Source: Candidatus Heimdallarchaeota archaeon B3_Heim (GTDB lineage: Archaea > Asgardarchaeota > Heimdallarchaeia > Hodarchaeales > Hodarchaeaceae). From it: a stretch of 6,681 nt of DNA. Position numbers and translations under genes: made by a program. The notes below the pieces were generated by a model. It was not told where the DNA came from, ran no database searches, and saw only the letters and a program-made list of their open reading frames with translations. Position 1 is the first letter of the stretch, and every line of letters starts with the position of its first letter. The DNA is taken from positions 1-6,681 of the forward strand of contig NJBF01000091.1 of the NCBI GenBank assembly GCA_003144275.1, in the 5' to 3' direction. Below, one piece after another: positions 1,914 through 6,681 of this stretch.

Positions 1914-4900
1914 ATGATAAGTAATATGGCTGAGAATATTGAAAAGCCTCAATTATTGTTTGAGGTAAGCTGGGAAGTCTGCAACAAGGTTGGCGGTATC
2001 CATACTGTTATATCAACTAAAGCCTCAACATTAACAGAGGAGTTCAGGAACAAGTATATTTTGATAGGACCGGATGTTTGGAGAGATGAGAGAGAAAACC
2101 CCGAATTCATTCCCGATACGCTTCTTTTTAAGGACTGGAAAGAAAGGGCTGAAGCGGAAGGAATATTGATAAAGACAGGCAGGTGGAATATATCAGGAAA
2201 GCCAATAGTGATTCTGGTTGATTTTTACAATTTCATCTCTCAAAAAGATGACATTTTTAAAATATTCTGGGAAAAATTTAAGCTTGATTCCATATCCGGA
2301 CAGTGGGATTATATAGAGCCGGCATTGTTTGGATATGCCTCTGCCAAAGTAATTGATAGTTTTGTGAATTTCAACATGGGTTATTATGATAGGGTAGTAG
2401 CCCAGTTTCACGAGTGGATGACAGGAACCGGCGTTTTATATCTTCATGAAAATGCACCGGGTGTAGGAACTGTTTTTACTACCCATGCCACGGTACTTGG
2501 CCGCTCTATTGCCGCGAATAACAGGCATTTATATAGTAATTTACAACAGTATAACAGCCAGCAGATTGCCAGGGAATTTAATATAATTTCAAAACAATCA
2601 CTTGAAAAGATATCAGCACAAACTGCTGATGCATTTACAACCGTTAGTGAGATTACTTCGAAAGAATGCAATCATTTTTTAGGCAAAAAACCGGACATTG
2701 TCACGCCCAATGGATTTGAAGACAATTTTGTGCCGGTGGGAGATGAATATGAAAGAAAAAGGAAACAAGCCCGTGAAAAACTGATCCAGGTTGCCGGATC
2801 TGTTTTTGGCTATGCGGTTCCCGGTAATGCCCTGCTTGTAGCCATTAGTGGAAGATATGAGTTTAAGAACAAAGGGATCGATCTGTTTATTGATTCCCTT
2901 GCAAAACTGAACCGATCAAATGATACCGAAAGGGAAATTCTGGCTTTTATTTTAATACCGGCAAATAATTACGGGCCAAGGGAGGAGGTTTTAAGAAATT
3001 TAAGCGAGACAGGAAAAAATATTGATACCGGAGACCCTTATCTGACTCATGGTTTGCATGATTCTGAATTCGATCCCATCCTGGCAGGGATAAAAAAAGG
3101 TGACCTGAAAAACAGCCAGGAAGATAAGGTAAGAGTTGTTTTTGTTCCTTCATATTTACAGGGCGATGATGGAATTTTTAACGAAACATATTATGACTTA
3201 CTGATTGGTTTTGATCTTACCCTTTTCCCCTCTTATTACGAACCGTGGGGATATACTCCGCTGGAGAGTTTAGCTTTTTGTATTCCTACGGTTACCACTT
3301 CACTGGCAGGCTTTGGCTCCTGGGTAAAAAATCATTTTTCTGAGCCGGGTAACGGCATCCTTGTTATCGACCGTACTGATGATAATGATGAATATGTGGT
3401 TGAATCCATCACAAATAATCTGAAACATTTTTCGGCTCTTTCGTTGAAAGAAGAAAACGACGCAAGAAAAAAGGCATTTGAAATTTCAAGAATTGCCTTA
3501 TGGAACAACCTGATAGACTTTTATTTTAAGGCTTATCTGCTTGCTCTGGAAAAAGCAGGCAGCAGAATTGATACTTTTGAAATCTCTGCTGAAATGAAAC
3601 CTGCTCCTGAAATAACGGAACACAGGGAAATTTCCAGGCCCATTTGGAAAAAACTATATGTCGGATCCAAATTGCCTGAAGAATTGGAACCTCTCAATGA
3701 GTTGTCGAAAAATTTATGGTGGTCGTGGAATACTGAAGCTGAAGATCTTTTTAAAGCCATTGATCCTGTTTTATGGGAGGAGTGTGCACATAATCCGGTC
3801 ACTCTTCTCGAAAAAGTCGATTACAGAAAAATTTTAGTGTTGGGAAAAGACAAAAACTTTACTAATAAACTGAATAACGTTTATAAAAGATTTTGTGATT
3901 ATCTGGACACAAAACCTCCTGAGAACCACCCAAAAGTTGCCTATTTCAGCATGGAATACGGCTTACATGAAAGTTTAAGGATCTTTTCCGGAGGGTTGGG
4001 AATTCTTGCAGGTGATTATTTAAAAGAAGCCAGCGATTCGAATTTCACTATTACAGGAATTGGTTTATTATACCGGTATGGTTATTTCAAACAAATCTTA
4101 TCGGTTAACGGCGAACAGCATGAAATTTATGATCCTGAACATTATTCGAAACTTCCACTGATACCCGCAAAGGATGAAAAAGGAATATGGAAAACCATAA
4201 GCATTGTTTTTCCGGGCAGGACGGTTACTGCAAGGATTTGGGAGGTTAAGGTTGGGAGGGTATCCCTTTATCTGCTGGATACTGACCATGAAGATAACCT
4301 GGAAAAGGATCGTTTTATTACCCATCATTTATACGGAGGTGATAAAGAAAACCGGTTGAAACAGGAATTGTTACTCGGTATTGGGGGTATAAGGATTTTG
4401 CGCGTTCTGGGTATTAATGCTGATCTGTTCCACAGCAATGAAGGACATTCAGCTTTTATCGGGCTTGAACGATTAAGGATATTGATTTCTGAAAATAACC
4501 TTTCTTTCACGGAGGCACTGGAGGTGGTCAGGGCATCCACTCTTTTCACAACCCATACTCCGGTACCTGCCGGTCATGATGCTTACGACGAAAATCTTTT
4601 GCGAACCTATATCGCTCACTATCCGGAACGGCTAAAAATATCCTGGGATGAATTTATGGCTTTTGGCAGGAGTAATCCGGAGAACCGGAATGAGAAATTT
4701 AATATGAGTTACCTCGCTGCTAAATTGTCTCAGGAAGTAAATGCCGTGAGTAAACTTCATGGAGAAGTGACACGGGAGATGTTTAGCAAGCTGTGGCCGG
4801 GATATTTACCACGGGAGCTGCATATCGGCTATGTAACCAATGGAGTCCATTATTCCACCTGGGTTGCACGTGAATGGCTGGACTTGTATCAGAAAAAACT

Positions 4901-6173
4901 CGGGAAATCAATCGTTCAGCATCAATCTGAAAAAGAATGCTGGGAGGAGATTTATAAATTCAAGGATGAAGTCATTTGGAAAACCAAACAGAATTTAAAG
5001 AGTCAATTGATCTCCTATGTAAAAGAGAGGTTCCGTTATAATTGGATAAGAAGGCATGAAAACCCGAAACATATTGGTGAAATAACCAGGACCTTAAATG
5101 ATAAAGCCCTGACAATCGGATTCGCGAGAAGATTTGCAACTTATAAACGGGCAAATTTGATATTTAAGGATGTCGAAAGGCTGGCAAAAATTGTTAATAA
5201 TCCCGATAAACCCGTGCAATTTCTGTTTGCCGGAAAGGCACATCCTAAGGATGGTGGTGGAAAAGAACTGATTAAAAAGATTTTTGAACTTTCAAAAAGA
5301 CCGGAGTTCCTTGGGAAGATCCTGTTCCTTCAGAATTACGACATGGATCTGGCTAAAAAACTTGTACAAGGCGTGGATATTTGGTTGAATACCCCAACTC
5401 GTCCTATGGAAGCTTCGGGAACAAGCGGGGAAAAAGCCGTGATGAATGGCGCCTTGCATTTCAGTGTCCTTGATGGCTGGTGGGTTGAAGGTTATGTCTC
5501 AAACGCCGGATGGGCAATTTCTGAAAAAAGAACATATGAAAATCAGGACTTTCAGGATGAACTGGATGCGGAAACCATTTATCATTTGCTGGAAAACGAG
5601 ATAATTCCCGCGTTTTATGACCGGAATGAAAAGGACATTCCTGCAAAATGGGTAGGATTTATTAAAAATTCCATGGCTAAAATAGCACCGAATTACACCA
5701 TGAAAAGAATGTTTACGGATTACCGGGAGCAATTTTATAATAAGCTGTTCGATCGTACCCTGGTTATGAGGAAAAACCATTATGCCATGGCAAAAAGATT
5801 GGCTTCATGGAAGAAAAAAATCTACCGGTCGTGGAAGGATCTTGAAGTGATTTCTGTTGATCTTTCAGCGCCTGTTGAGAAGTCATATAAAATAGGAGAA
5901 GAATATAATGGTACTATAATCATTGATCTGAAGAATGTGCCGGCATCCCAAATCGGGCTGGAATTAGTCGTTTCAAACAATAGTAAAAACGAATCTCCTG
6001 AAATTATCCATAAACAGGAATTTACACTGGAAAAAGTTGAGGAAGGCAAGGCTTACTTTAAAGCAAAAATTATTCCCACAAAACCGGGAAGTTTCACTTT
6101 TGGATTCAGATTGTTCCCCAAACATCCTGACCTGCCACACCAACAGGATATTGAATGTGTAAAATGGATTTAG
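1914..6173 (+). CDS. glgP: Fused GT3 glycogen synthase / GT35 alpha-glucan (glycogen/maltodextrin) phosphorylase, 1419 aa (alternative start ATG 1926)
   Basis: N-terminal half: FEVSWEVCNKVGGIHTV, FHEWMTG, FTTHATVLGR, GRYEFKNKG and FPSYYEPWGYTPLE (E443-X7-E451), all GT3 motifs. C-terminal half: NLWWSWN, YFSMEYG, SGGLGILAGD, NEGH, TTHTPVPAGHD, FARRFATYKRA, AGKAHP and EASGTSGEK (PLP lysine K1174), all GT35 motifs. One uninterrupted ORF. The symbol glgP describes only the C-terminal half. Confidence 0.95.
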   Translation: MISNMAENIEKPQLLFEVSWEVCNKVGGIHTVISTKASTLTEEFRNKYILIGPDVWRDERENPEFIPDTLLFKDWKERAEAEGILIKTGRWNISGKPIVILVDFYNFISQKDDIFKIFWEKFKLDSISGQWDYIEPALFGYASAKVIDSFVNFNMGYYDRVVAQFHEWMTGTGVLYLHENAPGVGTVFTTHATVLGRSIAANNRHLYSNLQQYNSQQIAREFNIISKQSLEKISAQTADAFTTVSEITSKECNHFLGKKPDIVTPNGFEDNFVPVGDEYERKRKQAREKLIQVAGSVFGYAVPGNALLVAISGRYEFKNKGIDLFIDSLAKLNRSNDTEREILAFILIPANNYGPREEVLRNLSETGKNIDTGDPYLTHGLHDSEFDPILAGIKKGDLKNSQEDKVRVVFVPSYLQGDDGIFNETYYDLLIGFDLTLFPSYYEPWGYTPLESLAFCIPTVTTSLAGFGSWVKNHFSEPGNGILVIDRTDDNDEYVVESITNNLKHFSALSLKEENDARKKAFEISRIALWNNLIDFYFKAYLLALEKAGSRIDTFEISAEMKPAPEITEHREISRPIWKKLYVGSKLPEELEPLNELSKNLWWSWNTEAEDLFKAIDPVLWEECAHNPVTLLEKVDYRKILVLGKDKNFTNKLNNVYKRFCDYLDTKPPENHPKVAYFSMEYGLHESLRIFSGGLGILAGDYLKEASDSNFTITGIGLLYRYGYFKQILSVNGEQHEIYDPEHYSKLPLIPAKDEKGIWKTISIVFPGRTVTARIWEVKVGRVSLYLLDTDHEDNLEKDRFITHHLYGGDKENRLKQELLLGIGGIRILRVLGINADLFHSNEGHSAFIGLERLRILISENNLSFTEALEVVRASTLFTTHTPVPAGHDAYDENLLRTYIAHYPERLKISWDEFMAFGRSNPENRNEKFNMSYLAAKLSQEVNAVSKLHGEVTREMFSKLWPGYLPRELHIGYVTNGVHYSTWVAREWLDLYQKKLGKSIVQHQSEKECWEEIYKFKDEVIWKTKQNLKSQLISYVKERFRYNWIRRHENPKHIGEITRTLNDKALTIGFARRFATYKRANLIFKDVERLAKIVNNPDKPVQFLFAGKAHPKDGGGKELIKKIFELSKRPEFLGKILFLQNYDMDLAKKLVQGVDIWLNTPTRPMEASGTSGEKAVMNGALHFSVLDGWWVEGYVSNAGWAISEKRTYENQDFQDELDAETIYHLLENEIIPAFYDRNEKDIPAKWVGFIKNSMAKIAPNYTMKRMFTDYREQFYNKLFDRTLVMRKNHYAMAKRLASWKKKIYRSWKDLEVISVDLSAPVEKSYKIGEEYNGTIIIDLKNVPASQIGLELVVSNNSKNESPEIIHKQEFTLEKVEEGKAYFKAKIIPTKPGSFTFGFRLFPKHPDLPHQQDIECVKWI
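1926..3557 (+). other. GT3 (eukaryote-type) glycogen synthase domain of the fusion, boundaries approximate
   Basis: KVGG at K25, EPWGYTPLE at 3240-3266, and a C-terminal W...Y..AY..AL helix. Confidence 0.85.
3636..6170 (+). other. GT35 alpha-glucan phosphorylase domain of the fusion, boundaries approximate
   Basis: Starts RPIWKKLYVGSKLPEELEPLNELSKNLWWSWN. PLP motif at 5409-5438. Confidence 0.9.
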
Positions 6174-6177
6174 AGAT

Positions 6178-6262
6178 ACTCGTCCGACGACCCGGCCGAA
6201 CGCCCGCCTGAACGAATTCATTCGGGCAGGGTATCAGCCGGGCGGGCTCCAGTTCGACGAGT
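6178..6262. repeat. GC-rich nested stem-loop (REP-like) immediately after the stop codon
   Basis: Outer stem ACTCGTC/GACGAGT (6178-6184/6256-6262), middle stem CCCGGC/GCCGGG (6191-6196/6237-6242), inner stem CCCGCCTGAA/TTCGGGCAGGG around GAATTC. No U-tract follows. Confidence 0.75.
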
Positions 6263-6280
6263 TAACCCTAACCCGAATAA

Positions 6281-6309
6281 ACCCCGTAGGATAATTATTC
6301 CAACGGGGT
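6281..6309. repeat. Short imperfect palindrome ACCCCGT-AGGATAATTATTCCA-ACGGGGT
   Basis: 7-bp perfect stem plus a GGA/TCC extension. Not followed by a T run on the + strand. Confidence 0.7.
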
Positions 6310-6316
6310 AAACCGG

Positions 6317-6449
6317 AAATTCCAAAACACAAAACACAAATATCAAATAAGTTCCAATTCCGAAATTCAAAACTCCAAACAAATGTTTGATAATTTGGTA
6401 ATTGATTATTGTTTTTTATTTGTTATTTATCTTTTGTCATTTGGGATTT
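6317..6449. repeat. Mirrored degenerate heptamer array (A/C-rich arm, then T/G-rich arm)
   Basis: Left arm: AAATTCC AAAACAC AAAACAC AAATATC AAATAAG TTCC AATTCCG AAATTCA AAACTCC AAACA. Right arm reverse-complemented: AAATCCC AAATGAC AAAAGAT AAATAAC AAATAAA AAAC AATAATC AATTACC AAATTATC AAACA. The centre is at 6382-6383. Confidence 0.8.
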
Positions 6450-6485
6450 TCTGTCAAAAAATTCAAGAAAGTTAATAATAAGACA

Positions 6486-6582
6486 CTATTTTTTTTCCAA
6501 GACTTCGCTTGTAAAAAAAGCCCTTCGGGGAAAATATAATATGGAATAATTAACAAAAAACGAAGTCTTGGAAAAAAAATAG
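6486..6582. repeat. 97-bp element with a perfect 22-bp inverted repeat (possible miniature mobile element)
   Basis: CTATTTTTTTTCCAAGACTTCG (6486-6507) and CGAAGTCTTGGAAAAAAAATAG (6561-6582) are exact reverse complements. The 53-bp interior contains CCC-TTCG-GGG. Confidence 0.85.
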
Positions 6583-6640
6583 AAATTTCAAAATCCAAAA
6601 ATCAAAATCCCAAATAAATCCCAATTAAAGAAATCCCAAA
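6583..6640 (+). repeat. Second A/C-rich heptamer tract, with no mirror arm inside the window
   Basis: AAATTTC AAATCCA AAAAATC, then AAATCCC three times (6605, 6616, 6631). One G in 58 nt. Confidence 0.75.
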
Positions 6641-6653
6641 ATGAATAATAAAT

Positions 6654-6661
6654 TAATTTTG
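6654..6661 (+). promoter_or_regulatory. Possible Bacteroidota -7 box for a gene beyond the window
   Basis: TAATTTTG fits TAnnTTTG. No -33 element is seen and the context is AT-rich, so a chance match is plausible. Confidence 0.25.
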
Positions 6662-6681
6662 TTGCATGAAACACAAAGATA

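Follow-up and report, generated by a model that had tools for sequence, protein, structure and literature searches.

Locus and taxonomic assignment

The stretch of DNA analysed here, referred to below as the window, comprises contig C17 (6681 nt) in its entirety; the contig belongs to the metagenome bin G000 (3.95 Mb), deposited as Candidatus Heimdallarchaeota archaeon B3_Heim. From left to right, it carries a minus-strand gene encoding a 375-aa IS4-family transposase (318-1445); a gene (1914-6173; PF05693, PF00343) whose 1419-aa product joins glycogen synthase, DUF3417 and alpha-glucan phosphorylase; a GC-rich hairpin 3′ of this glycogen gene (about 6180-6262); a gene-less cassette on the plus strand (6263-6488), delimited by metagenome joints and alignments and composed of a 5′ module, an A/C-rich arm, a T/G-rich arm and a 3′ tail; and, as a neighbour outside the cassette, the 5′ end of a transposon that we call X (6486-6681, plus strand). 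The two arms form a mirrored array of 7-nt units, which is the subject of this report. We are fairly confident that the cassette is a gene-less, partly decayed copy of a family of small selfish hairpin cassettes of Bacteroidales, the complete members of which enclose a four-helix-bundle (4HB) gene.

The closest proteins to the 1419-aa fusion are from Bacteroidales, with a top identity of 64% to a Rikenellaceae metagenome-assembled genome (MAG); therefore, the contig is probably mis-binned, as the short contigs C6, C39, C42, C71 and C81 probably are. The architecture of the glycogen fusion is kept in at least 80 Bacteroidales species. Searches among relatives of bin G000 itself were uninformative, and the searches were re-centred on Bacteroidales genomes found via the orthologous loci of the fusion.

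Architecture of the mirrored period-7 array

The A/C-rich arm (6312-6384, plus strand) consists of nnnCAAA units with a period of 7, as defined by the sequence, the inverted repeat, a lag-7 test and an alignment of family copies (A2, described below). The T/G-rich arm (6385-6454, plus strand), defined by the sequence, the fold and alignment A2, mirrors it with period-7 TTTGnnn units. An earlier description of the window made from the letters alone (the sequence-only reading) had proposed that both arms follow one plan, and this plan was recovered: from 6317 onward, five AAA-led heptamers are followed by TTCC, three units and AAACA(AA), and the right arm mirrors this order. The depletion of one base on each strand was likewise confirmed by counting, with 2 G within 6317-6383 and 2 C within 6384-6449; the wider arms (6312-6384 and 6385-6454) contain 4 G and 3 C, respectively. 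The outer 39 nt of the arms (6312-6350 and 6416-6454) are 79% complementary, and a global alignment of the arms requires one 3-nt gap.

The RNA fold of the array has a predicted energy of -32.9 kcal/mol, corresponding to z = -4.06 for the plus strand and z = -2.78 for the minus strand relative to dinucleotide shuffles. The pairing also exceeds that of composition-matched arms, as the sequence-only reading had anticipated: the minimum free energy of -32.4 compares with -18.5 +/- 3.5 when the arms are shuffled separately, with 1 of 1000 shuffles as good. When the 7-mer units were shuffled within the arms, the observed energy was matched in 3 of 1000 trials, and the alignment score of the two arms, 22, was reached in none of 1000 shuffles (4.5 +/- 4.0). 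The lag-7 self-match is 0.58 in the left arm and 0.62 in the right arm, above the 95th percentiles of the shuffles (0.49 and 0.56). Chance thus accounts for none of these features: the array is real, and so are its period, its mirrored layout and its strand asymmetry. Based on the fold prediction, the hairpin may form as RNA or as single-stranded DNA.

The hairpin does not resemble an intrinsic terminator, since its 65-bp stem has a GC content of 27% and is not followed by a U run. A scan with Rfam 15 yielded nothing at the gathering score on 6263-6488, with sub-threshold miRNA-like matches on other hairpins only, and detected no rRNA in the window. The window copy has no open reading frame (ORF) between the arms, and a TIGR02436 gene is absent from its tip. 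Composition-only scans for G-poor and C-poor tracts and low-threshold Tandem Repeats Finder runs were far too unspecific for finding such arrays. An ungapped inverted-repeat scan of the assembly for skewed tracts did not distinguish signal from control and missed the window hairpin, as did exact-seed inverted-repeat scans, the latter because the arms have a 3-nt register shift.

Boundaries and end modules

The 5′ boundary of the cassette is the joint at 6263, as seen in strains of the metagenome runs X2 and X4 without 6170-6262. In contigs of these runs, 6169 is joined to 6263 with only ATAAATAC as intervening letters. The 3′ boundary is TAAGACACTA, right after which the X repeat starts. The 5′ module contains a CCCCGT..ACGGGG hairpin (6282-6308, plus strand), which is common to the assembly copies C6 and C39, where it also lies immediately 5′ of the A/C arm, and to a filled copy in another genome (L253 in G275), where it adjoins the arm that forms the gene leader and shares its first 14 letters, CCCCGTAGGATAAT, with the window. 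The 5′ module of the window is of the L253 type and not of the type found in genome G115. In BLAST searches, this module alone matched at 92% in G172 and G275 and at 89% in G292. The 3′ tail (6455-6488, plus strand), recognised by its likeness to the tail of the G115 element, ends with TAAGACACTA at 6479-6488. The motif of this end, TAAGnnnCTA, also terminates the G115 copies and transposon X (TAAGAGCCTA).

The segment 6263-6390 aligns with the left part of the filled L253 with z = 9.8 (none of 500 shuffles as good), the T/G arm aligns with the right part of L253 with z = 3.0, and the tail (6441-6486) aligns with that of the G115 element with z = 6.6. The cassette has no terminal inverted repeats of the kind that define MITEs (miniature inverted-repeat transposable elements), given that it carries a hairpin module at its 5′ end and a TAAGnnnCTA tail at its 3′ end. 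No target-site duplication was seen.

The segment 6170-6262, a 93-nt GC-rich hairpin after the glycogen stop codon, shows insertion/deletion polymorphism. It is probably a separate small mobile palindrome.

Recurrence of the family in Bacteroidales

The recurrence that the sequence-only reading had expected was found in a BLAST scan with 6262-6470 (E <= 0.01), which hit 212 of 401 sampled Bacteroidales genomes. The top matches span the entire array at approximately 75% identity, and some loci are hit on both strands, which is the expected behaviour of a palindrome. Three copies, each behind a CCCCGT..ACGGGG hairpin, are present in the assembly itself (window, C6 and C39). Alignment A2 comprises 21 copies, of which 19 span both arms fully, while C39 stops within the T/G arm and C6 includes only the inner units of the A/C arm; the A/C arm comes first in 21/21. 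CAAA on the left and TTTG on the right are conserved every 7 nt, while the remaining three positions of each unit drift. This explains why register and strand asymmetry outlast the exact sequence, a property that had been noticed from the window alone and that the CAAA/TTTG spacing in A2 upholds.

A 16-mer from the right arm was present in 16 of 151 genomes, with no occurrence in reversed controls, and its counts reached 102 in G115, 18 in G068 and 10 in G128. The copies occupy short intergenic gaps, whether the adjoining genes are tandem, convergent or divergent. In 693 kb of unbiased Bacteroidales DNA, only six long hairpins were found, none of them an array, and a similar array was absent from the orthologous glgA-glgP loci of 80/80 other species. 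The array was gained at this locus and, given its rarity in unbiased DNA and at the 80 orthologous loci, is not a general style of terminator.

In some copies (C6:6340-6660, C39:260-560, L156, L159, L165 and L175), an extra inverted pair of imperfect palindromes frames the locus. These palindromes are centred on TAATTAG or end with GTCTATAAA, and relative to them the inner part is oppositely oriented in C6 and C39.

Filled relatives, gene loss and spread of the gene-less form

In genome G055 (L171/L227), the same arms enclose, exactly at the tip, an intact minus-strand ORF of 119 aa that belongs to the TIGR02436 4HB family (72 bits, cut-off 24); L171 is in the same BLAST hit set as the window array. 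The ATG of this ORF lies inside the innermost arm unit, and its stop codon abuts the other arm. In the filled relatives, the reverse complement of the T/G arm is a 5′ leader that contains the ATG of the 4HB gene, so that the gene has the A/C-rich strand of this arm as its leader. Two more filled 4HB copies were found. L228 in G115 shares its ends with the empty copies of that genome, and L253 has arms of the AAATCCC type. The sequence-only reading had placed AAATCCC/TTTGGGATTT tracts around 4HB genes, correctly as judged from the L253 arms. No GxxExxY gene, which it had also named as a cargo, was found in this assembly, the sole place examined.

A decay series could be read from 20 fetched G115 copies. 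It runs from the full gene through approximately 95 nt that represent both gene ends (L184, L188 and L200) and shorter remnants (L189 and L197) to a fused junction, CTAnTTTGAnTTTGTCAT, in which the last codons and the stop codon are joined to the start codon. The fused junction occurs in 10/20 copies at different loci, and ten empty copies have a mutual identity of 85%. A deletion junction common to many loci implies that the gene-less form multiplied after the deletion; therefore, the shell moves in the manner of a MITE and needs no gene in cis. With the sequence family, the filled copies L171/L227, L228 and L253 and this decay series, the proposal that the window array is the empty form of an arm-cargo-arm cassette agrees well.

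The sequence-only reading had further set the array apart from terminators, repetitive extragenic palindromic (REP) elements and MITEs. The distinction from terminators stands, because there is no GC-rich stem and no U run, whereas that from MITEs does not, because the gene-less form is present in approximately 100 copies in G115. MITE-like behaviour is seen for the family in G115 and not in this genome: there are 102 arm-core matches, a common junction and the filled relative L228.

In six G115 copies (L190, L192, L193, L194, L198 and L200), a GC mini-palindrome of 13-15 nt (CCGCCGCGGCGGA type) is nested at differing positions in the arms. It resembles a minute mobile insert that has the arrays as its target.

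Handedness of the arms

The order of the arms in an inverted repeat reads alike on either strand, so it represents a true handedness. The window family is C-first, with a polarity index of -23. A first sample of 47 TIGR02436 genes, taken as the best hidden Markov model matches in approximately 30 Bacteroidales genomes and bin G000, had significant flanking inverted repeats in 36 cases, and the G-rich arm came first in all 32 strongly skewed cassettes. Seven empty array hairpins near these genes were G-first as well. Based on this sample, the window array was considered not to be a 4HB cassette, its handedness being opposite, an explanation that was dropped after filled C-first copies appeared.

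The handedness follows the clade of the 4HB protein. Among ten loci encoding 4HB proteins at least 61% identical to that of L171, eight have the C-first order, one shows it weakly and the tenth lacks a repeat, and this close clade is found in genomes that hold the hairpin family. The more distant 4HB proteins (36-44% identity, 20 loci) comprise 10 G-first, 4 C-first and 6 weak cases. A C-first arrangement gives the gene an A/C-rich, G-poor leader, and a G-first arrangement gives it a G/U-rich leader.

Two 4HB genes framed by G-first arrays, with TTAGTTAG and GTGAAAG unit types, are present in the assembly (C42:4327-5026 and C71:5386-7236). In C71, the gene that comes next, a 372-aa ORF, has a third array behind it, so that the arrays alternate along the contig.

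Variants of the locus in metagenomes

The locus is present with its hairpin in contigs of three sediment or seep metagenomes. Population variants turn the mismatches or wobbles at 6328/6438, 6337/6429 and 6351/6415 into Watson-Crick pairs, consistent with divergence of the window copy from a more perfect palindrome. Words from the left arm and the CCCCGT module reach a summed depth of up to approximately 15,000, compared with approximately 17 for the neighbouring gene, and much of this depth comes from other loci and other organisms. The sequence-only reading had suggested that excised circles might be found, and no circle junction was seen in the three metagenomes. A joint between 6357 and 6433 was not counted, since one side of 21 nt makes it too weak.

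Transposon X

The downstream neighbour was recognised from a repeat copy on contig C81 and from metagenome relatives. The segment 6546-6681 shares 98.5% identity with C81:8866-9000, and on that contig the repeat runs on into a 549-aa ORF (ORF X); the element on C81 spans 8866-10680, and metagenome contigs of higher depth begin at 6485. In the window, all on the plus strand, X comprises a hairpin with a 25-bp stem (6486-6510/6558-6582), a second A/C array (6577-6641), an ATG at 6642 that opens 13 codons, and the start of ORF X at 6666. The ends were defined from 25 metagenome relatives of ORF X (56-100% identity). The 5′ end consists of a TTTTTCC..GGAAAAA hairpin followed by a GCCCTTCGGGG hairpin, and the 3′ end of a hairpin followed by TA, ..TTTAAGAGCCTA; the two ends do not form an inverted repeat with one another. 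Tandem arrangement of X copies is frequent.

In most X copies with an intact 5′ end, TAAGnnnCTA or a near variant precedes the 5′ hairpin directly. X lies exactly behind the cassette 3′ word at three independent loci, namely the window, L202 and L210. At L202, the cassette copy is a different one, its flank being approximately 70% alike while X is approximately 100% alike, and at L210, X follows a related non-coding element. Both termini of the G115 cassette recur in L118, a distant X-like element (z = 11.9 and 4.5). In the closest X copies, the leader contains the cassette-like A/C array (6577-6641), which is absent from most other X relatives. The high-copy genomes G115, G068 and G128 yielded no X-like ORF, which is weak evidence given that these are MAGs. 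Profile searches of ORF X against Pfam, NCBIfam and PDB gave no match, its AlphaFold model was poor (mean predicted local distance difference test score, 50.6) and Foldseek returned nothing meaningful.

Speculatively, the X-like protein is a candidate mobiliser of the cassettes. The idea of a pure MITE of transposon X was dropped once filled C-first copies had appeared. On a broader and rather doubtful extension, the heptamer-armed 4HB cassettes, and by extension the elements of the type found as intervening sequences (IVSs) in 23S rRNA, would be non-autonomous passengers of strand-specific, rolling-circle-like transposons typified by X; the X leader would have captured a cassette arm, and the C-first and G-first forms would be separate lineages, with polarity fixing the type of the cargo leader.

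On C81, a minus-strand 4HB fragment (10649-10795; TIGR02436, 46.7 bits, one internal stop) abuts, with its end, the 3′ terminus of X at the contig edge.

Proposed origin of the window array and alternative explanations

In the explanation that we favour, the full form would be a long hairpin made of inverted 7-nt arrays, with a 5′ arm of nnnCAAA units and a 3′ arm of TTTGnnn units. Its ends would be non-identical, namely a short GC hairpin module on one side and a tail ending with TAAGnnnCTA on the other. Its tip would carry a 4HB gene of approximately 120 codons (TIGR02436, the family of the 23S rRNA IVSs and Avd), the A/C-rich, G-poor arm serving as the 5′ leader with the ATG and the other arm following the stop codon. 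Because the arms flank the ORF in the transcript, the stem could close around it, by analogy with rRNA intervening sequences. Loss of the gene interior would bring the arms together and produce the mirrored array, and the empty form would still multiply in trans in a MITE-like manner. Our best guess for the movement is that an X-like transposon protein, provided in trans, nicks the TAAGnnnCTA end in a strand-specific manner. The copy in the window is itself probably inert and would simply add a long AU-rich hairpin to the 3′ region of the glycogen gene.

Several observations weigh against this origin. The tip of the window array has neither the G115 junction nor a recognisable 4HB remnant, and the 5′ module is unlike that of the G115 subfamily (z = 0.4). 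The handedness of the window family is the minority one relative to the 32/32 G-first sample. The glgA-glgP loci of 80 species show no presence/absence polymorphism, and in the three metagenomes we saw neither a filled variant nor a hairpin-free variant of the locus. The sole RNA run gave a 34-nt low-complexity match only, with nothing to support RNA processing. The arm-to-arm covariation for which the sequence-only reading had proposed a test failed to appear: the arms of one copy score 23.7 with each other, compared with 25.6 for arms taken from different copies, and RNAalifold gave 10 pairs only, 9 of them without any double change, and a covariation energy of zero. Therefore, the complementarity may have been inherited from a palindromic founder by common descent rather than maintained by selection. 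As to the missing remnant, the window copy is further decayed than those of G115, and its inner units align weakly with the first codons of the L253 gene.

The conservation of CAAA and TTTG amid drift of the other three unit positions would also suit a structure selected by the host, such as a long bidirectional terminator, a stabiliser of the 3′ untranslated region of the glycogen gene or a protein-binding array. The array lies 90-280 nt past the stop codon of a long gene, the C6 copy is located between convergent genes, the 3′ arm is U-rich on either strand, and the hairpin has been retained in strains of three studies, all of which would accord with such a function. Nevertheless, a host role appears improbable, since the 80 orthologous loci lack the array and the 693 kb of unbiased DNA held six hairpins and no array. 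Moreover, copies are also found between tandem and divergent genes, the stem is neither GC-rich nor followed by a U run, and the same shell holds a gene in relatives and reaches approximately 100 copies in one genome. TTTG is the -33 promoter word of Bacteroidetes; interpreting the TTTG arrays as promoters was rejected, as the -7 word TAnnTTTG is not matched by the arms.

Two further explanations assign the arms differently. According to the first, which we consider very unlikely, the arms do not constitute a single unit: the partner of the T/G arm would be the A/C array at 6577-6641, around a 122-nt insert, as a G-first cassette, and the left arm would be the end of a separate element. The segment 6415-6452 is indeed 71% complementary to 6581-6618, with perfect matches of 12 nt (6439-6450/6604-6615) and 10 nt (6440-6449/6631-6640), and most 4HB cassettes and empty forms are G-first. 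However, pairing with the left arm is better (79% vs 71%), the two arms adjoin as in the window in 19 of the 21 family copies, and the second A/C array is inside X and travels with it in C81, L202, L204, L222 and L225. The alternative that the array stems from transposon X, as a fragment of it or as a MITE of X sequence only, and is unrelated to the 4HB cassettes deserves equally little credence. It would draw on the homologous A/C array in the X leader (70-78% identity over 36-50 nt), on the recurrence of both G115 element ends around the X-like ORF of L118 with the z scores given above, and on the TAAGnnnCTA word in which X and the hairpin element both terminate. Nevertheless, the array is missing from the leader of most X relatives, the filled copies hold the 4HB gene and not X, and the empty copies retain the start and stop of that gene; the lack of an X-like ORF in G115, G068 and G128 points weakly in the same direction, as these are MAGs.

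Relation to known elements

As a gene-less 4HB cassette, the window element is closest to the ORF-bearing IVSs of 23S rRNA, in which paired flanking sequences enclose an ORF. To our knowledge, the 4HB ORF of these IVSs has been a puzzle since the 1990s, and we know of no one who has established the role of the protein or the way the element moves. In the example of Coxiella burnetii, as outlined in PMC4990558, the IVS is a 428-nt selfish element in helix 45 of the 23S rRNA with a decaying S23p ORF, and it is excised by RNase III, which acts on paired RNA. The likeness lies in the small selfish insert, the same protein family (S23p/4HB, TIGR02436/PF05635), the proneness of the ORF to decay and the existence of ORF-less forms. 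The cassettes differ in their location between protein-coding genes, here after the glycogen gene, instead of helix 25/45 of the 23S rRNA, and in their long arms of 7-nt units, their distinct 5′ and 3′ modules and a gene-less form with approximately 100 copies in one genome. The G-first heptamer-armed 4HB cassettes resemble the window family in that inverted arrays of short period surround a TIGR02436 gene within Bacteroidales intergenic gaps; the window family is opposite to them in having the C-rich arm first and an A/C-rich leader.

With MITEs, REP elements and bacterial interspersed mosaic elements (BIMEs), and non-autonomous rolling-circle elements such as derivatives of DINE-1/Helentron (PMC4067079), the cassettes have in common that they are short, non-coding, hairpin-forming, intergenic and multicopy, that they arose by internal deletion of a longer element and that they are probably moved in trans. 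In contrast to these types, the ends of the cassette are not mutual inverted repeats, its arms are tandem 7-nt arrays, and its parent carries a 4HB gene and not a recognisable transposase. The heptameric repeats of Nostoc and Xanthomonas are likewise intergenic 7-nt arrays with strong strand asymmetry, but the portion of PMC4692102 that deals with them presents them as G-quadruplex-forming simple repeats and mentions there neither a mirror partner nor a cargo. In the literature, we found no description of such cassettes outside rRNA, of either handedness, or of such MITEs in Bacteroidales.

This locus and its relatives show that the 4HB gene known from IVSs also moves through ordinary intergenic DNA, enclosed in a defined shell, and that this shell (period-7 mirror arms, 5′ hairpin module and 3′ TAAGnnnCTA end) survives and multiplies without the gene. 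Its two mirror-image handedness classes follow the protein clade. To the general design of heptamer-armed 4HB cassettes, the present tests add the C-first class, the common deletion junction and a connection with the TAAGnnnCTA end. The decay series dates the gene loss, the termini lend themselves to nicking assays, and X, docking at the end motif, provides a candidate mobiliser. The family may also account for some of the unexplained heptamer tracts in bacterial intergenic regions.

Other features of the contig

Two further elements lie upstream of the cassette. The IS4-family element is bounded by 36-nt inverted repeats (78-113 and 1522-1557; 83%), and its right repeat is followed by an extra inverted copy that gives a hairpin at 1511-1588, which Rfam scored as miRNA-like. 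Directly 5′ of the ATG of the glycogen gene lies a solitary 3′ end of an X-type element (1861-1909), with 86% identity to C81:10632-10680.
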